Source of the DNA: Octopus vulgaris
Taxonomy: Eukaryota
NCBI GenBank assembly: GCA_951406725.2
Contig: OX597829.1
Location: 22,816,001-22,880,000 of the forward strand
Direction: 5' to 3'
Length of the DNA stretch: 64,000 nucleotides
The translations under genes and the position numbers were made by a program. How positions within the stretch are numbered: the stretch's first letter is position 1; each line of letters opens with the position of its first letter. The notes below the pieces were generated by a model that saw only the letters and a list, made by a program, of their open reading frames with translations, searched no databases and was not told the origin of the DNA. Below, in pieces: positions 6,665-55,210 of the stretch.

Positions 6665-6873
6665 GTGACTGCGTGTGTACCGTTGGTGATTTTTTTTCTT
6701 CAGTCTTCCCTTCCTTGGATCTTTCCTCTTCCTATGTTTCTGACGAAGAGCTCCGCTCGAAACGTTAAATCCTCCTTCTTTCTTTCCTTTCCTGAGCGTC
6801 CAATAATACTATACTTGTTCCACGTCTTCGCGTTGTTGTGTTTTCTCTTTGTGTTTTCATGTTTGGATTAACT
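6665..6873 (+). mobile_element. Non-autonomous PLE pLTR-like unit with hammerhead motif (HHR family a)
   Basis: A ~210 bp unit between microsatellites. Homologues at 14804-15009 (-), 15408-15604 (+, diverged), 60925-61120 (-) and 61178-61266 (-, partial). Confidence 0.8.
6736..6770 (+). ncRNA. Minimal type I hammerhead ribozyme motif
   Basis: GTTT-CTGACGA-A-GAGC-TCC-GCTC-GAAA-CGTT-AAAT: canonical CUGANGA and GAAA cores, 4-bp stem II, palindromic AACGTT in place of stem III. Confidence 0.75.
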
Positions 6874-7299: not shown

Positions 7300-7705
7300 T
7301 TTACTTTTTTTCAGTCATTTGACTGCGGTCATGCTGGAGCACCGCCTTTAGTCGAGCAAATCAACCCCAGGACTTATTCTTTGTAAGCGTAGTACTTATT
7401 CTATTGGGTCTCTTTTTGTTAAACCGCTAAGTTACGGGGACGTAAACACACCAGCATCGGTTGTCAAGCGATGTTGGGGGGGGGGTGACAAACACACACA
7501 CACACACACACACCATCGCTTACACACACACACGCATATATACGACAGGCTTCTTTCAGTTTCTGTGTACCAAATCCACTCACAAGGCTTTGGTCGACCT
7601 CAGGCTATAGTAGAAGACACTTGCTCAAGGTGCCACGCAGTGGGAATGGACCCGGAACCATGTGGTTGGTAAGCAAGCTACTTACCACACAGCCACTCCT
7701 GGGCC
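7300..7705 (-). mobile_element. tRNA-derived SINE family A, near full length
   Basis: Reverse complement of AGGAGTGGCTGTGTGGTAAGTAGCTTGC...GGTTCCGGGT...CCTTG(G)GCAAGTGTC...CCAGCATGGCCGCAGTCAAATGACTGAAA. Confidence 0.85.
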
Positions 7706-7957
7706 TGTATGTGCATCTTTGTAGATGTGTATAATTGTATTATAAGTGAACAGTTTGCCTTTGTATTATATGTAATGTACATGTGTTATGAATACGCGCT
7801 GTGTATACGAGGAATGTATACATTATGTGTTTGTGTAAGATCTGTATATGTTCTGTTGGTGTTGATTGAATGTGCGTTTGTATGATGTCTGCGTTACAGT
7901 GACGTGTGTAGAGTGCGGGGCAGGGTAGAGAATTTATCGACTTCGAACATGGCCGTC

Positions 7958-15024: not shown

Positions 15025-15257
15025 CTTACTCTTTTACTCTTTTTCTTGTGTCAGTCATTTGACTGCGGCCATGTTGGAGCACCGCCTTTCGTCGAGCAAA
15101 TCGACCCCAGGACTTATTCTTTGTAAGCCCAGTACTTATTCTATTGGTCTCTTTTACTGAACCGCTGAGTGACGGGGACGTAAACACACCAGCATCGGTT
15201 GTCAAGCAATGCTAGGGGAACAAACACAGACACACAAACACACACACACACGCATAT

Positions 15258-15291
<34 letters not shown>

Positions 15292-17380: not shown

Positions 17381-17451
<71 letters not shown>

Positions 17452-17452
<1 letters not shown>

Positions 17453-17931
17453 GTCTTGGTATAAAAGATGGGCTACAGCAAATATTCTGCTCAATATCAC
17501 AGATTTCCTTGTCAGTTGTTTGACCATAATCAGTTGAGCATGTCCCTTAGTGGCTGACGATATGTGCATCTCTGATTACGAGCAGAAGTAGTGGGGGAGC
17601 ACCATAGCCATCTGTTGAGATGGATTCTTATGAGTTTGGATAATTCACCGCTAGAAACATGGGTGTTTCATTCAACGTCCTTAAACAAACCTTATTCAGA
17701 GACTTTTTGAGCGGGATGGGCTACTCAACCAGAAGAAAATTCTAACTGGGCCCCACCTGCAAGGTCATGCGCTGTTAATCTTGATATGAGATCACCATGT
17801 CGCGCACATATGGTTGTGATGCATGTGCCTGGTGTACCCTTATCAGACGGGTAGTCATGATGGGTATAGTGGGCGTCGTATATTTTACCCCAGTGTCACT
17901 TTGATGGCATGCACTGCTCTCTCACTCACTC

Positions 17932-29495: not shown

Positions 29496-29505
29496 TATAT
29501 ATATA

Positions 29506-29692
29506 GGTGAAATTTAAAGAAAAACAAAAGACGAAGACAGGTGTATAAACAGCAAGCAGGTGAATTCGTTTGACGCTCGGGAAAGTGAAAAACACTTTTA
29601 CCTTTCGAGCCTATGCTCTTCAACAGAAAGGAATAAGATTAAATAAACAGAGAGAGAATGAAAAAAACTTGTAGATTTAACGGTCAAGCATG
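29506..29692 (-). mobile_element. pLTR-like unit with hammerhead variant (HHR family b; motif 29595-29630)
   Basis: Minus strand CTTT-CTGTTGA-A-GAGC-ATAG-GCTC-GAAA-GGTA-AAAG. Related to the pLTR of the 41473-46998 PLE. Ends in (TA)n. Confidence 0.75.
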
Positions 29693-29725: not shown

Positions 29726-30075
<350 letters not shown>

Positions 30076-38616: not shown

Positions 38617-40024
<1,408 letters not shown>

Positions 40025-41329: not shown

Positions 41330-41401
<72 letters not shown>

Positions 41402-41416
41402 TATATACATATATAC

Positions 41417-41449
<33 letters not shown>

Positions 41450-41472
41450 CTTATATATGTATATGTATATAT

Positions 41473-42505
41473 AGGAATTAATCTTCTCTTTCGCTCTTAT
41501 ACGCCATTTGGTCTCAACTCTCCCCCTCCTCATCTAACCCCCCTCTCCCCCTCCTCACCTATCCTTTCTCCCCCCGACCCCCACTTCTTCAGTCCTTCAT
41601 CCTTTCACCCCTACTCCCCTTCCCTTCTTCCCTCTTTCTCCCTCCCTCTTCCTCTTCCCTCTGCTCCCTCACTCCCTCTCTCCCCTTCTCTCTCCCCCTC
41701 TCCCTCTTTCCTCCTTCATCCCTCTCCTCCCCTTCCTTCTCCCCATCCTCTCCTCTTCACCCTCCCCTCCCCCTCTTCTTCCCCTCCCCTTCTCCCCCTC
41801 TTCTCCCCTCCCCCTCTTCTCCTCACTACACCACATGACTTTACACATCACATCACATATGATGTGCCATACTAATACACACACCAACTAATACATACTA
41901 ATACGTACTAATACATACTAGTACATACTAATACTTACACCAACCCTATACATACACACGTCCAGACCCCGCATACGCACTTATACTCTCTCACACACAC
42001 ACACACACACCTATACATACCAATACGTACTAATACATACTAATACATACTAATACATACACCAACCCCACACATACGCACGTCCAGACCAATCCCACGC
42101 ACTGATACTCTCTCATACACACACACACACACACACACACCCTTATACATACTAATACATACACCAACCCTATACATACACATCCAGACCCCTCCCACGC
42201 ACTTTTAGCTGGTCCCTCAACCCTATTATCTCCCCTTATTTCGCTCTCGCGTCTCATGTTTGATCTTTGACCTCTGGCCGAAATCAGATCGCCATGTTGA
42301 TTCGTTAGCTACTGCACGCATTTTTTTCTCTCCTTCTTTCTGTGTTTTTCTCTCTCTGTGTATCTTTCTGTTGAAGAGCGTAGGCTCGAAACGTTAAAGA
42401 CTTGTTTTATTTATATTTCCTGAGCGCCATACTAATACAATTGTTCGTTTGTTTTCCACCTGCCTTCGTCTTTTGTTTATTTTCATAAAGCTTCCCGTTA
42501 TATAT
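41473..42505 (+). repeat. 5' pseudo-LTR
   Basis: Nearly identical to 45965-46998. The differences noticed are small indels in C/CT tracts. Confidence 0.93.
42363..42400 (+). ncRNA. Minimal hammerhead ribozyme motif, variant core CUGUUGA (5' pLTR)
   Basis: TCTTT-CTGTTGA-A-GAGC-GTAG-GCTC-GAAA-CGTT-AAAGA: stem I TCTTT/AAAGA, stem II GAGC/GCTC. Confidence 0.7.
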
Positions 42506-43122
42506 TATGCGCTCACGTGGTCTCACTTTCATCCTATATTCTACCAATACCACTATCAACACTTACCTCTACCTTGGATTTTCTTTACCTCTTGGATACT
42601 TACCATCGGCTGCACCTCTCTTTCGCGGATCAAAGTGACTTTGCATTGATGTGAAATCCTTAAAAAATATACCACGACGTCTACACATTTCTCACCTTGA
42701 ACTTTCAACCTTGAACTTGTTCGCATAAACTGTCCCGTTTGTTGTATTTTTATTTTCTCTTATATTACCACTTTTTTTACATTCATTTCATGCTTTCCAC
42801 ATTTTCCTGAATTTTTGTTCTCCTTTCCGTCTTTCTTCCCTCTCTGGATGTCCATACTCCGTTTCCTCTGCCTGCACCCCCCTTTTTTTGCCTCCCCCTC
42901 TCTCTGCTTCCCTTCTTTCTTTCCCTTTTCCGTTTGCCCCGTCTTTTCTGCCCCTATCGCTTACTTATCTAGTTTTTTCATACGATTATTATTTTTTTTA
43001 TTTTTTTTTTTTTGTTTTTTTGAACGTTTGTTTTTTCCCCTTTTTTTCTATTTTTTTCATACGATAATTTTTGTTTTTTGTTTTTTTTGTTTTTTCGAAC
43101 GTTTTTTTTCCGCTATCCCATC

Positions 43123-46100
43123 ATGCCGGATCCTAGGTCCTACCTCCTCACCCTCAATCACCGTTTGAAGGATCATCTACGTTCGCTTCCTGTATATCGC
43201 CTTCAGCCGTCCGTTAATCTCTCTCTACTTCTTTTTAAAAAAACCCGCTTCTCTAGCCATGTCTCTTTCCTAAGCCGCTGCCTACATCACCGACTCATCC
43301 CTAAAGGTTTCCGCCTCCACTTCCACCCTGCTCTCCACTCGGATTCTTCCATCTTACCCATACTCCGCACCACATCTTACCGCCTTATGCGGGCCACCAT
43401 TCGCTCCAATCTCTCCAAACTACAAGCCATCAACCGCCTTCTTCCTCCTGCTTTCTCCACCTTCTTCTCCTCTCTGCCGCCTCTCTATGCTCCAAACACG
43501 CTACGCTTCATTATCCATTTGAATCAACTCTTCCATCAATTTCTTTCTGATACCAAACTTCGTAAACTCCAATCACTCTTCCATTCCACCCTACCCGACG
43601 CCACTACCCCAACTCCTCCACCACCCTTCTCCCCTCCCGATAGGCTCCATCCACCCACACCTAACCCCACTGCCCCTCCCTACAACCCCTTCTCCCCTCC
43701 CGTTAGGCTCCATCCACCTACACCTAACCCTACTGCCCCGCCCAACCACCCCCCACACACCTCCCCAATCCCTCCCCCTCAGACCTCCACGAGACCTACC
43801 ACCCCTCCTACTTCTATTCCACCCACCCCTTCTCCACTTCCGTCTGTTGTTACCATTCCCCCCGATCTTCCCCTCTCTGCGGCTGAACGCTCCGTCCTTG
43901 GTAGGGGTCTGCGTTTCATCCCCCTCACTCCATCCTGTAAGGAATTCCAGACGCGAGTTGATGTCCACAGCTTTGTGCGCCGTGTCCGGTTGGGTGCGCA
44001 TTACCACGACTCGCCACCCACACCCAACGAAGAGGACGACTGCTTCACTGGCCTGGGCCGCCGACCATCCCCGTGGACGCCTGCCCCTGGCCAGATCCTA
44101 GCAGTGGATCTTTTCGCGGGCGCTTGTCAGCGTGCATTGGAGCGGTTCAACTTCTCCAGGCGCCAACGCCGCCTCAACATCTCCCCGGCTGAGCTCTTGG
44201 CTCTTCGTTCCCTCCAACGGCGCGCTGACATTATCATCAAACCGGCTGACAAGGGTGGAGCTGTAGTGGTGTGGCGCGCGGACCTCTATAGGGCCGAGGC
44301 TTTCCGCCAACTCAATGACACCTCCTTCTATTCCCCTCTGCCCTCTAACCCCACACGTAGCTACCAACAGACGGTATCCTCTACTGTCCAAGACCTCATC
44401 TCGTCCTCCCGTCTCCCCCGCACCGCATCCAACCTAATTGTGCGAACCCCACGTACCCCCACCATTTACTTCCTCCCCAAAATCCACAAACCCAACAACC
44501 CTGGCCGCCCCATCGTCTCCGCCTGTAACTGCCCCACGGAGCTCATCTCTAAATACCTCGACCGTGTCCTTGCCCCCCTAGTGGCATCTCTTCCCTCCCA
44601 CATCCACGATACCAACCATGCTCTCCGGCTTTTCAACTCTTTCTCCTTTCCTCCCGGCTCCTCCAAAATCCTTTTTACTATGGACATCCAAAGCCTCTAT
44701 ACTGTTATCCCTCACCACGAAGGACTGCAGGCCCTTCGACACTTTCTTGACCTCCGCTCTAACCCTGTACCTGACACCTCCACACTCATTCGTCTGGCCG
44801 AACTTGTCCTTACTCTGAACTGCTTCTCGTTCGCGGGCGAGTTCTACCATCAGGTCTCGGGAGTGGCCATGGGAACGCGAATGGGCCCCAACTATGCGAA
44901 CCTGTTCGTTGGCTATGTTGAGGCCCAAATATTCTCTACTTTCACTGGTCCCACTCCTGAACTATATGGTCGTTATATTGACGACATTATCGGTGCCACC
45001 TCACTCTCCCGCGAACATCTAGATTCCTTCCTCTCTTTCGTCCAATCTTTCCATCCAGCCCTCCACTTCACTTCCACTATCTCCAACACCTCTGTCTCCT
45101 TCCTCGACATTTCGGTTAGCATTCTTGACTCCACTCTTACCACCTCCATTCACTACAAACACACAGACTCACACTCATACCTCAACTTCTCTTCCTCCCA
45201 CCCAGAACACACCAAGCTTTCCATCCCCTATTCCCAATTCCTCCGTCTACGTAGGCTCTGTAGTGACGACCATGACTTTGAGACTCAGTCTCAACGTATG
45301 GCTCACCACTTCACCCTACGTGGATACCCCCTCACCACTATCCACACCGCCCTTGCCAGAGCACGGTCCGTGGACCGTGTATCTGCTCTCTCTCCCCGAA
45401 CCCGCCCTGTAGTCTCCCGCCTCCCTTTTCCCCTCACTTACCACCCCACGACCCTACGTCTCCAACGCACCATTCTTCGAGCTTTCCGTCGTCTCCAGTC
45501 CGACCCGTCCACTTCACACCTCTTCCCTAACCGACCCCTCCCCTCTTTCAAACGAGCCCACAACCTTCGAGACCTTTTGGTCCATAGCTCCTTCCCTGAC
45601 CCTACCTCCCAACCCGGCTCGTTCCCCTGCTCCCGCCCACGTTGCCGCACTTGCCCTTACCTCTCCAACACCACCCGCCTCACTAGCACCCACCATCGAC
45701 CCTATCCCATCATCCACTCCTTCACCTGCACCTCCAGCAATATTATCTATTGCATCTCTTGCTCTCTCTGCAATTCCTTGTACATCGGACAAACGGGACG
45801 CCGCTTGGCTGACCGGTTCGCGGAACACCTTCGTGACATCCACCTTGCGAACGACACACCGGTCTCACGCCATTTCCGCTCCACCGGTCACTCCTTGCAA
45901 CACCTATCTGTGTTCGGTTTGTCCTTACACAGAGGCCATCCGGATTCCCGTTTGCGCCGTGAACAGGAATTAATCTTCTCTCTTCGCTCTTATACGCCAT
46001 TTGGTCTCAACTCTCCCCCCTCCTCATCTAACCCCCCTCTCCCCCTCCTCACCTATCCTTTCTCCCCCCGACCCCCACTTCTTCAGTCCTTCATCCTTTC

Positions 46101-46368
46101 ACCCCTACTCCCCTTCCCTTCTTCCCTCTTTCTCCCTCCCTCTTCCTCTTCCCTCTGCTCCCTCACTCCCTCTCTCCCCTTCTCTCTCCCCTCTCCCTCT
46201 TTCCTCCTTCATCCCTCTCCTCCCCTTCCTTCTCCCCATCCTCTCCTCTTCACCCTCCCCTCCCCCTCTTCTTCCCCTCCCCTTCTCCCCCTCTTCTCCC
46301 CTCCCCCTCTTCTCCTCACTACACCACATGACTTTACACATCACATCACATATGATGTGCCATACTAA
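43123..46368 (+). CDS. PLE polyprotein: N-terminal domain, Pro-rich linker, reverse transcriptase, Cys linker, GIY-YIG endonuclease
   Basis: First ATG at 43123 (MPDPRSY). Motifs IIKPADKGGAVVV, YFLPKIHK, GRPIVS, TMDIQSLYT, GVAMGTRMGPNYANLF, RYIDDI, FLDI, CSRPRCRTC, NIIYCISCSLCNSLYIGQTGRRLADRFAEH and EQELIFSL...GLN. No internal stop. The C-terminal ~110 low-complexity aa are doubtful. Confidence 0.93.
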   Translation: MPDPRSYLLTLNHRLKDHLRSLPVYRLQPSVNLSLLLFKKTRFSSHVSFLSRCLHHRLIPKGFRLHFHPALHSDSSILPILRTTSYRLMRATIRSNLSKLQAINRLLPPAFSTFFSSLPPLYAPNTLRFIIHLNQLFHQFLSDTKLRKLQSLFHSTLPDATTPTPPPPFSPPDRLHPPTPNPTAPPYNPFSPPVRLHPPTPNPTAPPNHPPHTSPIPPPQTSTRPTTPPTSIPPTPSPLPSVVTIPPDLPLSAAERSVLGRGLRFIPLTPSCKEFQTRVDVHSFVRRVRLGAHYHDSPPTPNEEDDCFTGLGRRPSPWTPAPGQILAVDLFAGACQRALERFNFSRRQRRLNISPAELLALRSLQRRADIIIKPADKGGAVVVWRADLYRAEAFRQLNDTSFYSPLPSNPTRSYQQTVSSTVQDLISSSRLPRTASNLIVRTPRTPTIYFLPKIHKPNNPGRPIVSACNCPTELISKYLDRVLAPLVASLPSHIHDTNHALRLFNSFSFPPGSSKILFTMDIQSLYTVIPHHEGLQALRHFLDLRSNPVPDTSTLIRLAELVLTLNCFSFAGEFYHQVSGVAMGTRMGPNYANLFVGYVEAQIFSTFTGPTPELYGRYIDDIIGATSLSREHLDSFLSFVQSFHPALHFTSTISNTSVSFLDISVSILDSTLTTSIHYKHTDSHSYLNFSSSHPEHTKLSIPYSQFLRLRRLCSDDHDFETQSQRMAHHFTLRGYPLTTIHTALARARSVDRVSALSPRTRPVVSRLPFPLTYHPTTLRLQRTILRAFRRLQSDPSTSHLFPNRPLPSFKRAHNLRDLLVHSSFPDPTSQPGSFPCSRPRCRTCPYLSNTTRLTSTHHRPYPIIHSFTCTSSNIIYCISCSLCNSLYIGQTGRRLADRFAEHLRDIHLANDTPVSRHFRSTGHSLQHLSVFGLSLHRGHPDSRLRREQELIFSLRSYTPFGLNSPPSSSNPPLPLLTYPFSPRPPLLQSFILSPLLPFPSSLFLPPSSSSLCSLTPSLPFSLPSPSFLLHPSPPLPSPHPLLFTLPSPSSSPPLLPLFSPPPLLLTTPHDFTHHITYDVPY

Positions 46369-46998
46369 TACACACACCAACTAATACATACTAATACGTA
46401 CTAATACATACTAGTACATACTAATACTTACACCAACCCTATACATACACACGTCCAGACCCCGCATACGCACTTATACTCTCTCACACACACACACACA
46501 CACCTATACATACCAATACGTACTAATACATACTAATACATACTAATACATACACCAACCCCACACATACGCACGTCCAGACCAATCCCACGCACTGATA
46601 CTCTCTCATACACACACACACACACACACACACCCTTATACATACTAATACATACACCAACCCTATACATACACATCCAGACCCCTCCCACGCACTTTTA
46701 GCTGGTCCCTCAACCCTATTATCTCCCCTTATTTCGCTCTCGCGTCTCATGTTTGATCTTTGACCTCTGGCCGAAATCAGATCGCCATGTTGATTCGTTA
46801 GCTACTGCACGCATTTTTTTCTCTCCTTCTTTCTGTGTTTTTCTCTCTCTGTGTATCTTTCTGTTGAAGAGCGTAGGCTCGAAACGTTAAAGACTTGTTT
46901 TATTTATATTTCCTGAGCGCCATACTAATACAATTGTTCGTTTGTTTTCCACCTGCCTTCGTCTTTTGTTTATTTTCATAAAGCTTCCCGTTATATAT
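45965..46998 (+). repeat. 3' pseudo-LTR
   Basis: Direct repeat of 41473-42505, ending AAGCTTCCCG-TTATATA. Confidence 0.93.
46856..46893 (+). ncRNA. Minimal hammerhead ribozyme motif, variant core CUGUUGA (3' pLTR)
   Basis: Identical to 42363-42400. Confidence 0.7.
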
Positions 46999-47010
46999 AT
47001 ACATATATAC

Positions 47011-47041
<31 letters not shown>

Positions 47042-47134
47042 TATATATATATACATACATATATATATATATGTATATACATATATGTATGTATATATGT
47101 ATATATACATGTATACATGTGCATATGTATACAT

Positions 47135-47192
<58 letters not shown>

Positions 47193-47600: not shown

Positions 47601-47667
<67 letters not shown>

Positions 47668-48225
47668 ATGTGTGTGTGTGTTTGTGTGCCTGTGTTTGTC
47701 CCCCAAGCATTGCTTGACAACCGATGCTGGTGTGTTTACGTCCCCGTCACTTAGCGGTTCGGCAAAAGAGACCGATAGAATAAGTACTGGGCTTACAAAG
47801 AATAAGTCCCGGGGTCGAGTTGCTCGATTAAAGGCGGCGCTCCAGCATGGCCGCAGTCAAATGACTGAAACAAGTAAAGAGAGAATATGTAGCGAGAGTG
47901 GTAAAAATCAAGCATCCAGTGAACAGCATGGTGTGTGGAGTGATCACAAGTGATTGCGACGTTAAGCTTCCATTAATTTTTCCCCCACACAGCCTCAGAC
48001 TCAACACGGAGGCCTACATCAAGTGCCATGTGTCAAGGGGGTGGCTGCTGGAAGACCTTATGTCGGGTAACAAAACTCTGCATCATGCCACACAAGCAGG
48101 AGAACCCAGTCATGGCTGTCAGATAATTTCTGCAATCACATCTGGCCGCCTAACTCCCCCAGACTGTAAACCCTCTTGATTATTATCTGTCGTGCACAGT
48201 TGAGCGAGAGACTAACAAAGCTCCT
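47196..48225 (+). pseudogene. Tc1/mariner-superfamily (DD37D/maT-like) transposon relic split by a SINE
   Basis: TA-CAGGATG start. [21 protein letters not shown]...ISECLGI, then KHPVNSMVCGVITSD, QNSASCHTSRRTQSWL and WPPNSPDC. Confidence 0.7.
47435..47885 (+). mobile_element. SINE family A, full length
   Basis: Complete head, microsatellite and tail. Confidence 0.9.
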
Positions 48226-50449: not shown

Positions 50450-51614
50450 GTTGTGGATTATAGTAGTGATTGAGACTGTTTTGAATTAATTCTTGGATAT
50501 CTCTTTTGAACGTATCATTTTTAATATTAGCGTGTATGTTATTCTAAAGTCGTGGTGGATATGTCATTTGTAGTAGATGCGTTCAAAAGGGGTCTGTATT
50601 TTGTGATAAAAAAACGACTCTACTAATTCGTTGGCTACATATTGCGTCGTCCCTGAATTGATAGAGGGGAAAAATTCTGAAGCTTGGATTTTTGTTGTTG
50701 GCGCAAATTTCGATGTGTTGTCTGAATGCTATTTTTCTGTTTTCCGGAATTTTGGTCTGAGATCTATGCAGAGCCATCCTTTGACGTAGACTGTTTTTTG
50801 TTTGGCCTATGTATTGCTCTTGACACTCAGAGCAGGTTAGTGCGTATATCAGGTTCTCCGAAGCACATATGAAGATGTTTTCCACTGTGAAATGTTGTCC
50901 CTGTTTGAAGGAGAACTCTGATCCCTCAATTAAATTGACGCATATCCCACAGTTGGGTCTTCCGCATTTTTTTTACTGACGGCTTCAGTGTCGTTGAACG
51001 TATTTGGGCTTGTGTTAGGAGACTTTTCATAGATTTGGACTCTCTCTTGTTTTTGTAATAGTGTGTATTTGGAGGATTAAGTTCATTCTTTGGTCCTTTT
51101 TTTAGCAGGGGGATGTTTTGAAGGATGGTGTCGAAGGCTTCATTGTTAAGAGGGTTGTGTGTGGAGATGTATGGTAGGACTTTTGGTTGTAAATCCTTCT
51201 TTAATTTGGGATGTCTGAGTTCGTGAATGTTGAGTTGTAGGGCACTCATGCCACCCCAGACACACCTGAATGAATATCCCCTTCAACCTAGCAAAAATGA
51301 TCTGTACTATAGTTTCTAATGCAAGCGCCAAGGACACACAACTACATGAACTAAATGATACACTCATCACCAGGAACTACCCACCTTCACTAATTGATAT
51401 ATGCTTTCAACGTGCCCTACAACTCAACATTCACGAACTCAGACATCCCAAATTAAAGAAGGATTTACAACCAAAAGTCCTACCATACATCTCCATACAT
51501 AACCCTCTTAACAATGAAGCCTTCGACACCATCCTTCAAAACATCCCCCTGCTAAAAAAAGGACCAAAGAATGAACTTAATCCTCCAAATACACACTATA
51601 ACAAAAACAAGAGA
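50450..51614 (-). pseudogene. Second Neptune-type PLE fragment (thumb, Cys linker, GIY-YIG) with inverted duplication
   Basis: Minus strand CGRPNCGIC...ICASENLIYALTCSECQEQYIGQTKNSLRQRMALH. Plus strand SCHPRHT*MNIPFNLAKMICTIVSN. 51043-51245 is inverted relative to 51412-51614. Confidence 0.85.
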
Positions 51615-54310
51615 CAGTTTTTGTTATAGTGTGGGACGTAATTTGCAGTGATTTGTAATAAAACATTTAAGAGCAGCTTATACTTAATGGTAGTTTCTTC
51701 TTTTTTTTTTTTGATTCGCTGTCGCCTCGTTGTTGAACACGCATATTTATAAAATGGAAATATTTTAAAATTAGGTTCATTCCTGCCTAGTACTGTATGT
51801 CCATTTAATGGAATTTTGCTAGTACTCTTATAATTGATTTACTCTGTAGCGGCATTCGTGTGCATCGTTACAATCCGGTTTGCCCTATATAGTTTTTTTT
51901 TGGAGAGCCCTAATGTATATAATTTAGGTTAAATTCTGGGAGTCGCAAATAAACTTTCTCTTAATTCAAAGTTCTGTATATTCTTTAACATGAAATGTAA
52001 GCTCCAAGATAATTATGAGCGTCTTGTACAATCTAGTATTTCATATTTTGTGAAACTGGGTTGGGAACTTTTTTATGAACGTTCTCGTAAGTATATTTTT
52101 CAATGTCTAATGAGGCTTGCTTGCGATGACTTGTTGATTCTTCCAAAACTCTTTTTATTCTCTTCGTATATTAACGATTATTTTTTTAATATGCTTAAGT
52201 ATTTCGGCATTTATATTATTAGATGTTTAATACATAAAGCAAAACTTCCTTCTAGGTTTATGTTTTTTTTATTATCCTTAGATTTTGAATATTTATACGT
52301 TTTGCCCTTTCTATAACATTTGTAATTGGATTCATTGGTAATGGTCTTTGAATAAATATGTTTTTCAATTTGTGCGGTCTTTTATCACATTTTGCGGTAC
52401 TCGATATTATTGTGCAAGTTCTTCATGCTAAGTTGAATATGATATTTGCTCTTGAATATTAAAAAACTGAAAGAATGTGAAAAGAAGACAATAGTTTGAT
52501 TACGCGTGCTTATAATAGATATCTACGAGGGACGTTCAATAAGTAATGCCTCTGACCCACTTGCAGTTGTTTGATCTAGCTGAAAATTTGCATGTGCAAT
52601 CATTTATATCTCTATAGAGTAAATGGCAAATTACAGCTCTGAATTAATTGTGGTTTCTGATTTACAGGTGTTTGAACTGAGTCAAGTGTGAAATGGAGCC
52701 TGTTGAGTGTCGAGCAGTGATCCGGTTTTTGTATTTGAAAGGACGCACACCACGGGAGACTTTTGATGAAATGAAAGTAACTTATGGTGATGATGCCCCA
52801 TCATATGACCTTGAGGTGAAGATTAGTACCGGGTCTGTGGAAACTATCATTCATGACCATTTGCATATGCAAAAGGTGTCTGCCAGATGGATTCCCAGGT
52901 TGCTCACGCCTTTCCAGAAGCAAGAACGCGTCGAGTGCTCGAGGGTGAATTTGGAGATGTGGCAAGAAGATGAGTCAAAATTTTTCAAAAGACTGATTAC
53001 ACAGGATAAAACCTGGGTCCATCACGATGATCCAGAGACCAAAGCCCAGTCAATGCAGTGGAAGCACCGTGACTCACCCCCTCCAAAGAAGGCAAGGGTG
53101 CAGCCCTCCGCTGGCAAGGTCATGCTCACAGTCTTCTGGGACCAGGACGGAGTAGTGATGACAGATTTCCTGGAAAAGGGTACCACAATTACAGGAGCCT
53201 ATTATGCTTCACTTTTGAGGAAATTAAGAGAAGTTATCAAAATCAAGAGGCGGGGCAAGATCCGCAAAGGCATCCTCCTCCTGCAGGACAACGCTCCGGT
53301 CCACAACTCGCTTGTCACCAGATCAGAAGCACATGCGTATGGCTATGAACTCCTCCCCACCCCTCTACTTTCCTGACCTTGCACCCTCTGATTTTCACCT
53401 CTTCCCAATCATGAAGTTGTTTTTGAAAGGAAAGCGTTTCCCAGATGATGCAGCCTTGATTTCTGAAGTCACGTTGAGGTTGGAGGACCAAGCTGGGTTC
53501 TTCTACAAAAACGGTCTCCAGAGCCGCATCAAACGATGGGAGAAATGCGTAACTATGGGTGGTTCCTATGTAGAAAAAGACTAATAACTGTGCCAAGTTT
53601 CGTTGCTCTACTGCTATGGGAAGTGGGTCAGAGGCATTACTTATTGAACGCCCTTCGTATTTTTATCTGGCTATCTATTTTCATAATGAAAATGTCTAAA
53701 TAGTGGTATTTTCTTCAGGTTGAATTCTACTGTGGATTTAAACTTTTTAATTTATATTGCTAATGATGAGAAGATTTTTTAATTCCATATTGTTTAACAC
53801 GATTATCTATCCAAGCATGAAAAATTAAAAAAATCACTTAGATGTTTTGTATTTCTTTCCGGGCGGTTGTAAATGTGTTTCTAAATATTTATAAAGATCA
53901 TAATTTTTCATCCCATGGCATCGCATACTCAGCTGGCGAAAGTGGACGCTAGTTTTGGGCCCATTGCAATCTCCGATGTATGTCGCTATACTGAATCATC
54001 GAAAGCGAGATAATTATATTGTAATACCTAAACATTTTTTCAATGCACTCCAGGTAAGTAACAAGCCAATATTTAAACGAACTGATTCAATAGTCACGTG
54101 AGATATTAGTGTATAAATTTACAACATGAAATGGAACGGTAATTGCATTTTGGTTCACTGATTTTGGTGATTGATTAATTATATCTAGATAATCTTCTAT
54201 AAAACCGCATACGTTTGAAGTAGGGCTTCCATAAATACTTAAAGAACAAATTAATGAATTATATAGCCTTTGTGTTTCATATGCAGAACTTAGTCTTAAT
54301 TTCAAATCTG
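51611..54310 (-). pseudogene. Older decayed PLE (RT to endonuclease end) interrupted by a mariner
   Basis: Minus strand FHVVNLYTNI, IAMGPKLASTFA, LDIFIMKID, then the mariner, then DIYYKH and NIIFNLA*RTCTIIS. The reading continues across the mariner insertion. Confidence 0.75.
52526..53657 (+). mobile_element. mariner (D,D34D) element, internally deleted and frameshifted transposase 52693-53584
   Basis: 37-bp TIRs CGAGGGACGTTCAATAAGTAATGCCTCTGACCCACTT / AAGTGGGTCAGAGGCATTACTTATTGAACGCCCTTCG, TA TSD. Motifs WIPRLL, TQDKTW, QDNAPVH and PDLAPSDFHLF. Confidence 0.95.
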
Positions 54311-54733: not shown

Positions 54734-54783
<50 letters not shown>

Positions 54784-54786
<3 letters not shown>

Positions 54787-54965
54787 CGCAGGAGTGGCTG
54801 TGTGGTAAGTAGCTTGCTAACCAACCACATGGTTCCGGGTTCAGTCCCACTGTGTGGCATCTTGGGCAAGTGTCTTCTGCTATAGCCCCGGGCCGACCAA
54901 TGCCTTGTGAGTGGATTTGGTAGACGGAAACTGAAAGAAGCCCGTCGTATATATGTATATATATA

Positions 54966-55003
<38 letters not shown>

Positions 55004-55210
55004 TGTGTTTGTCCCCCTAGCATTGCCTGACAACCGATGCTGGTGTGTTTACGTCCCCGTCACTTAGCGGTTCGGCAAAAGAGACCGATAGAATAAGTAC
55101 TGGGCTTACAAAGAATAAGTCCCGGGGTCGATTTGCTCGACTAAAGGCGGTGCTCCAGCATGGCCGCAGTCAAATGACTGAAACAAGTAAAAGAGTAAAA
55201 GAGTAAAGAG
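54784..55210 (+). mobile_element. SINE family A, full length
   Basis: Complete, with (AAAAGAGT)n tail. Confidence 0.9.

Follow-up and report, generated by a model that had tools for sequence, protein, structure and literature searches.

How do Penelope-like elements (PLEs) rebuild the long repeat at their 5' end, the pseudo-long terminal repeat (pLTR)? This regeneration has been called open (PMC2377424), and we found no paper giving copy-level evidence on it, in a search that did not cover Repbase, Dfam or bioRxiv supplements. Here, we address the question with a PLE from Octopus vulgaris located at positions 41474–46997 of a 64,000-nucleotide stretch of contig OX597829.1 (assembly GCA_951406725.2; positions 22,816,001 to 22,880,000, forward strand). 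We refer to the whole stretch as “the window”, and all coordinates are window positions. The class of element is known and common; it is the shapes of its copies that make pLTR regeneration directly testable. We suggest, with roughly even confidence, that the 5' repeat is rebuilt when TA-primed reverse transcription passes over one 4.49-kb unit of RNA, probably circular, more than a single time. The parts of the element are as follows.

41474–46997 (+): whole element, an intact Neptune-type PLE; ends exact to within TA microhomology
41331–41473 (no strand): left target flank, rich in (TA)n
41474–42503 (+): 5' repeat (“pLTR”), read as a 5'-truncated second pass of the unit; its left end lies within endonuclease (EN)-coding sequence
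42282–42296 (+), equivalent to 46775–46789: putative transcription start cluster, deduced from run-off (DNA 5' ends of copies); peak at 42288/46781
42363–42400 (+): minimal hammerhead-like motif with a U6 core; predicted cut after 42395
42494–42505 (+): putative initiation site of reverse transcriptase (RT), CCCG followed by TTATATAT, with microhomology to the (TA)n target
42504–43122 (+): 5' untranslated region (UTR), pyrimidine-rich; holds the 42791–42803 donor cluster of deletion derivatives that lack the open reading frame (ORF)
43123–46368 (+): single uninterrupted ORF of 1,081 amino acids (ATG at 43123, stop at 46368)
44974–44985 (+): RT catalytic YIDD (amino acid 618)
45628–45654 (+): C-x4-C-x2-C linker, Zn-finger-like, of Neptune/Nematis type (amino acids 836–844; PMC8557442)
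45739–46011 (+): GIY-YIG endonuclease core (IIY..CxxC..YIG, R, H, E, GLN)
45966–46996 (+): 3' repeat, i.e., ORF end plus 3' UTR, with C/T-rich and AC-rich tandem tracts, start-site cluster, hammerhead and initiation site
46856–46893 (+): second copy of the U6 minimal hammerhead; predicted cut after 46888
46997–47191 (no strand): right target flank, rich in (TA)n; the TA-rich tract is read from 46992
29822–30033 (+): ~210-nt mini-unit belonging to a sister subfamily; identity to the final 210 nt of the repeat is 90.6%

The original prediction, made from the sequence alone, described an intact ORF with RT motifs (YIDD), a CxxxxCxxC linker and GIY-YIG residues, flanked by (TA)n and by two pLTRs of ~1 kb differing by a few small indels. 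All of these parts are found. Exact alignment of 41474–42503 with 45966–46996 gives 99.7% identity over 1,034 columns, with 0 substitutions and 3 one-base homopolymer indels. There are indeed two repeats; what does not hold is the notion of a terminal repeat of fixed length, as the ends of other copies indicate.

Ends of copies and the origin of the 5' repeat

Two sets of copies were compared. The full-length set consists of the best 40 of 3,629 candidates retrieved with a 1,761-bp ORF query. The terminal set is a first-pass sample, in which 90 of the first 100 listed places of a 3'-end pattern on one contig (C1) yielded 89 terminal copies. The 3' end is fixed: all 40 full-length copies reach the point CCCG/TTATA, after which 39 enter host DNA and one runs into another unit. 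A second class of 3' ends, with a 30–40 bp tail, is absent among the 40 + 89 3' ends; the feature is optional in the literature. The 5' ends are scattered, with 15/40 in the body of the unit and 25/40 preceded by an upstream partial unit, which reaches ORF sequence in 12 of these 25. Since the 5' ends scatter while the 3' end is fixed, the 1.03-kb “pLTR” in the window represents one truncation point of a second pass. A 5' repeat reaches 2.1 kb at most (L210), and this repeat and one of 1.76 kb led us to reject a hard copy-length limit of 6.07 kb. Because they extend far past the putative start point, upstream sequence must have been copied from the 3' end of a unit. One copy (L050/L160) comprises a 1.2-kb partial unit and two full units. 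All partial tandems that were inspected have one identical, seamless internal junction, TTATATATTATGCG.

The positions at which short copies stop point to an RNA 5' end. Among the 89 terminal copies, 4 begin in 46889–46992, 19 in 46790–46888 and 17 in 46770–46789 (7 of them at 46781), followed by a single one in 46565–46769; the remaining 48 begin farther upstream or past the fetched edge. AT or TA sites cannot explain this drop because the near-empty 205 nt hold 32 of them. The cluster suggests that the RNA begins near 46781/42288, ~80 nt upstream of the hammerhead core. Penelope of Drosophila virilis likewise starts transcription inside its pseudo-LTR (PMC2377424). Minimum free energy folding detected no excess RNA structure in 42288–42800 (z 0.76).

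Mini-units of ≤220 nt make up 40/89 of the sampled copies, and these are made by the element's own subfamily. The original prediction named the element as the likely driver of “family b” mini-units, which we take to mean units like that at 29822–30033. The element's subfamily does produce such units; that particular unit comes from a sister subfamily, ~89% identical, whose longer copies carry their own RT and EN (78–89% amino acid identity). For this reason, mobilization of the 29822 unit in trans by the ORF in 41474–46997 does not follow. In the sister subfamily, 13/30 loci begin ≤7 nt from the equivalent run-off point.

In the copies compared, stops at the putative start site are confined to the first pass. 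Of the first-pass copies reaching the region, 17/66 end at 46770–46789, compared with 0/45 on the second pass (Fisher p 7e-5). The 45 second-pass copies are those whose upstream repeat reaches 46789 (24 + 21, with one segmental duplicate dropped).

These shapes are consistent with the following series of steps. (i) Transcription would start near 42288, within the 5' repeat, as the run-off cluster suggests. (ii) The two minimal U6 hammerheads would cut the transcript as a dimer, and the ends of the monomer set free in this way would be joined to give a circle. (iii) The GIY-YIG nuclease would nick (TA)n DNA, whose freed end, paired with the internal UUAUAUAU, would serve as primer for reverse transcription; the fixed junction and TA flanks are seen, and the chemistry is that of known PLE biology. 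(iv) With uncut, linear RNA as template, RT would come to the end of the RNA at the start site, a probable cause of the ~210-nt mini-units. On a circle, it would copy a full unit and usually a further 0.4–1.6 kb, which may account for the partial tandems and matching repeats that are observed. A circle route has been proposed for PLEs (PMC4209133), and internal initiation has been demonstrated for a Poseidon PLE (PMC11167929). Second-pass copies never stop at the start site and the repeats within a copy match, both of which are in favor of this scheme.

This match was examined in the 25 copies with an upstream partial unit. The two repeats of a copy differ by a median of 1 substitution, compared with ~9 to other copies. 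Variants present in ≥2 copies occur in both repeats in 35/38 cells; private variants number 10 in both repeats and 22 in one only, many of the latter being alignment noise. In a larger, older set of 44 copies, restricted to unique sequence, 51/72 shared-variant cells are concordant, and private variants number 4 in both repeats and 74 in a single one. L346 and L351 account for about 50 of the differences within copies in this set.

Pseudo-LTRs have also been described as the result of tandem insertion (PMC2377424). An explanation of this kind, in which linear read-through transcripts are copied as by a long interspersed nuclear element (LINE), or a second copy inserts independently into a TA tail, together with gene conversion, seems to us rather improbable. 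Some copies (L054, L064, L172, L222) do sit in the TA tail of an older relative, and one variant, at 46937, appears to be inherited in a position-specific manner. However, after tandem insertion the downstream copy is truncated and a spacer of TA remains, rather than a seamless junction. Nor does an explanation of this type predict private variants in both repeats, and no full-length class terminates at the start site.

A stronger competitor is strand transfer on linear RNA, which accounts for the data almost as well as copying around a circle and which we judge somewhat less probable. RT would start internally, reach the RNA 5' end and, guided by homology, move to the 3' repeat of that RNA or of a second one, in the manner of the strong-stop transfer of LTR elements, before copying the body and a further stretch. 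This accounts equally well for the matching repeats and the ~210-nt run-off units, and it makes an active hammerhead unnecessary, in agreement with the U6 core and with in vitro results (PMC11167929). On the other hand, a second transfer would have to never fail, given the contrast between first- and second-pass stops at the start site. Derivatives that have lost the ORF bear on both options.

ORF-less derivatives, the hammerhead-like motif and points against the proposed circle

At 15 loci, the 5' UTR is joined to the 3' UTR and the ORF is deleted. These junctions show joins between distant parts of the element, which favors strand transfer. Donor positions cluster at 42791–42803, with outliers at ~42766 and ~42881, and acceptors are spread over 46531–46836. 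Several of the 42791 donors came from a search pattern that selected that site; among 40 loci chosen without this selection, 5 are of the ORF-less type. Two candidate explanations were rejected: a single exact donor at 42791, since donors form a cluster and the pattern had favored that position, and a splicing or lariat origin, since acceptors range over 300 nt without a GT/AG consensus. We suggest instead that RT occasionally slips from the 3' UTR to the 5' UTR near 42791–42803, thereby deleting the ORF; the resulting structures are seen, and the slip is their presumed cause. As a guess, donors may cluster because a protein-bound RNA segment lies beside RT.

The outcome would be small, retrozyme-like elements that can be copied round several times. 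Four loci consist of tandem arrays of 480–490-nt units (L161, L163, L164 and L165, with 5, 2, 2 and 2 identical junctions, respectively), and these have the retrozyme features of short tandem units, one type I hammerhead each, and no ORF. Junctions differ between lineages, and arrays terminate at the usual 3' point. A circle explains the series of five identical junctions in L161 more simply than strand transfer does.

The hammerhead itself is unusual. The original prediction of one in each repeat stands insofar as both repeats can adopt a minimal type I fold, with stem I UCUUU/AAAGA, stem II GAGC/GCUC and a palindromic ACGU; it falls short in the core, CUGUUGA, in which U replaces the conserved A6, and in the lack of an Rfam match. 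The motif also shows an extra base after A9 and G10.1-C11.1. Apart from U6, it has the features given for minimal PLE hammerheads in PMC4209133. An Rfam search found no hammerhead in 42250–43130 even at E≤10, and none among the 150 listed of 274 matches in the window. Pattern searches of the genome matched the U6 form 19,311 times and the A6 form 5,244 times. In an alignment of 31 hammerheads, in which the core columns were fixed by the search pattern, position 7, loop II and H17 vary and inner stem I is constant; one distant family has compensatory changes, with both partners of a base pair altered in stems I and II. We found no report of A6U in hammerheads in the literature searched, which did not cover most subscription journals. 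Short hammerhead-bearing units of older PLE families lie elsewhere in the window, at 6733–6820 (+), ~13876 (−), 14933 (−), 61764 (−) and 29497–29630 (−). The core is canonical A6 at 6733, 13876 and 14933, and U6 at 29497.

Several observations weigh against the circle. Start site, cleavage and circle are all deduced from DNA. A natural A6C hammerhead variant is reported to be slow (PMC3088659), in vitro cleavage by minimal PLE hammerheads is poor (PMC4209133), and insertion in vitro could dispense with the hammerhead in PMC11167929. The 5' ends do not clearly accumulate at the predicted cut, with 4/89 at 46895–46901 and none at 46889. First- and second-pass samples were taken by different queries, and unequal crossing-over following insertion is another way to form multi-unit arrays. 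In the 44-copy set, 21/72 shared-variant cells are discordant, many of them from L346 and the old copy L351. The variant 46937 T>C occurs only in the 5' repeat in two independent insertions (L336; L345/L346), which a pure circle does not predict; in one solo copy it is terminal. Finally, L346 carries the 3' end of a different subfamily, which suggests either a switch of molecules or recombination at a later time. Both the chimeric L346 and the 5'-only variant agree with the molecule switching that strand transfer involves. L345 and L346 (C2, 50 kb apart) are a single insertion duplicated along with its 5' flank.

The family lends itself to testing each step, whether on a circle or by transfer, with simple constructs: its ORF of Neptune type is intact, its putative initiation site is exactly placed, a start site can be predicted, the hammerhead is a natural variant, and ORF-less derivatives are nearly identical to their parent. 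The most far-reaching version of the circular scheme is a living PLE family in which a ribozyme-made circle is reverse transcribed by rolling circle, nicked (TA)n pairs with an internal UAUAUA, a natural U6 hammerhead variant with ~19,000 copies is put to use, and retrozymes are arising now through RT slips to one spot in the 5' UTR. We regard it as doubtful in this complete form. If true, it would place the complete path from autonomous PLE through pseudo-LTR to retrozyme on record in a genome for the first time, and would provide a microsatellite-directed RNA insertion enzyme with template-homologous priming.

Copy number, youth and TA targets

The element at 41474–46997 is intact, very young and recently multiplied, in keeping with the original prediction of a recent insertion. 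With the 1,761-bp ORF query, five other loci score equal to the self-match. In the 2.8-Gb, microsatellite-rich genome, pattern counts give 1,912 matches for an exact 34-mer near the 3' end, compared with 0 for the reversed control, and 159 + 13 matches for the 5' UTR site pattern. The start codon is kept in 28 of the 40 best copies, and 13 of these 28 are open through EN; in a second, older set of copies, 2/33 are. Variants in the RT-EN core comprise 24 synonymous changes over 450 sites and 28 non-synonymous changes over 1,311 sites, a ratio of ~0.4. Present-day activity is plausible.

Mis-assembly was named in advance as a reason to discard the element, and we consider an artefact behind the duplicated repeat or the apparent youth to be very improbable. 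One insertion with the same flank does appear on several small contigs (L108–L111), and the homopolymer indels, as judged from the assembly, may be sequencing errors. Set against this, the same architecture occurs at dozens of loci on different large contigs, with different flanks and 5' ends, and neither the tying loci nor the excess of 34-mer matches over the reversed control fits an artefact. The repeated insertion (L045 and L108–L111, on C35, C36 and C44, twice on C35) is either a segmental repeat or an assembly duplicate.

The predicted preference for microsatellites is borne out. (TA)5 is found at the junction of 84/89 position-sampled terminal copies, compared with 110/2,133 background 30-mers from the window. 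A target-site duplication is unreadable in (TA)n, and none was seen in two insertions outside TA (L038, L042).

The encoded protein and its relation to known systems

The ORF encodes, in order, a helical N-terminus, a Pro-rich linker, a telomerase-like RT, the Cys linker, the GIY-YIG EN and a 118-amino acid low-complexity tail. Pfam RVT_1 scores above its cut-off (31.9 vs 29.6 bits), and GIY-YIG gives a weak match below it (17.3 vs 22.6 bits, E 0.006). The endonuclease motifs are IIY-C-x2-C-x2-C-YIG (amino acids 874–889), R898, E901/H902 and GLN (amino acids 961–963). Of 8,000 candidates scored, 234 protein relatives have E≤1e-20, the best being ~55% identical. The protein alignment found no sequence relative in the PDB, and an AlphaFold model (48 sequences; mean predicted local distance difference test score 87.5) retrieved only telomerase at ranks 1–10 of a Foldseek search of that database. 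The Cys linker is C-x4-C-x2-C with the next C after 24 amino acids, a pattern common to 108/120 homologs. No stop codon directly follows EN (46012–46368); the tail is 96–139 amino acids long and composed of Pro/Ser/Leu, compared with a median of 6 amino acids in 106 homologs, and is likely neutral because its reading frame differs among copies. A T5-A7-C3 run at codons 37–41 (43232–43246) has one A fewer in 7/30 and 7/29 copies, and many copies stop at 49 amino acids. The length variation may reflect a mutation hot spot, sequencing error or a slippery site. In the 5' UTR, the dinucleotide AG is absent over 335 nt (42636–42970), after which come a polypyrimidine tract and an AG at 42971; this AG is a possible 3' splice site for an intron in the 5' UTR, like those of Penelope and Chlamys-3.

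Other repeats share the window. A broken fragment of another PLE family, 50586–51282 (−) plus 51270–51626 (+), shares the Cys linker and EN with the element (36% identity over 67 amino acids; Pfam GIY-YIG E 9e-6) and lies beside a partial copy of itself in inverted orientation. Remnants of two mariner transposases with broken reading frames (Pfam Transposase_1, HTH_48) are located at 38851–39797 (+) and 52681–53581 (+). Dispersed repeats of 250–310 nt with 84–93% identity (15026–15291, 47628–47878, 54750–55206 and 7487–7740; 1255–1567 with 17451–17763) are probably families resembling short interspersed nuclear elements (SINEs).

Assignment to the Neptune-type EN+ PLEs, as originally predicted, is supported by the features compared, namely motifs, architecture and residue matches counted by eye. 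The element has a single ORF with a telomerase-like RT plus C-terminal GIY-YIG with the Cys pair, R, H, E and N, and it forms 5'-truncated partial tandems as pseudo-LTRs (the 25 copies above). The N-terminal EN of Naiad/Chlamys is absent, EN being C-terminal here. The Neptune clade, which is paraphyletic according to PMC8557442, is described there as having a CX2-5CxxC linker between RT and EN with a long spacer to the next Cys, the spacer being short in Nematis. Judged by eye, the spacing of the linker and the RT block agree with the Neptune rows in its supplement, with ~52/94 residues of the DKG-RT1 block matching Neptune1_Ap compared with about one third for PoseidonFr. PLEs are plentiful in octopus, where a published annotation lists 31 recently active families, its supplement naming neither Neptune nor hammerhead (PMC13282606), and the family studied here may be among them.

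Compared with known systems, the element resembles the Neptune clade (Neptune1_Ap and Neptune1_Nv; PMC8557442 supplement) in its single ORF with RT followed by C-terminal GIY-YIG, its linker and long spacing to the next Cys, the two Cys between GIY and YIG, its partial tandems, its microsatellite bias and the minimal hammerhead-like motif in its repeat. It differs in its U6 core, in UTRs that total ~1.2 kb, in having no stop directly after EN, and in that the class of 3' ends with a 30–40 bp tail is not seen. An in vitro system should, according to PMC8557442, explain tandem formation and microsatellite bias. The one reconstituted PLE that we found in the literature is a Poseidon of Anolis carolinensis, PAc (PMC11167929); our search found no Neptune counterpart. 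PAc, like the octopus element, starts reverse transcription inside the RNA downstream of the hammerhead, prefers AT-rich targets and forms tandems. It belongs to the clade without the Cys linker, and starts at two sites that lie in an AC-rich stem-loop within the ORF and lack homology to the target, whereas the octopus element has one putative initiation site, 620 nt upstream of the ORF and homologous to the (TA)n target. Penelope of D. virilis (PMC2377424) shares with it the start site in the pseudo-LTR and a full unit following a variably truncated copy; an intron is only a candidate feature of the octopus element. The ORF-less derivatives, in turn, are similar to non-LTR retrozymes (PMC7229834; bioRxiv 10.64898/2026.07.22.740005), which have a type I hammerhead in each unit and an origin in PLE repeats, the latter derived by phylogeny in the 2026 preprint. 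The octopus derivatives, known here from DNA alone, differ from these in being still ~99% identical to their intact parent, in containing 290 nt of its 5' UTR, in ending at its initiation site and in carrying the minimal U6 hammerhead.

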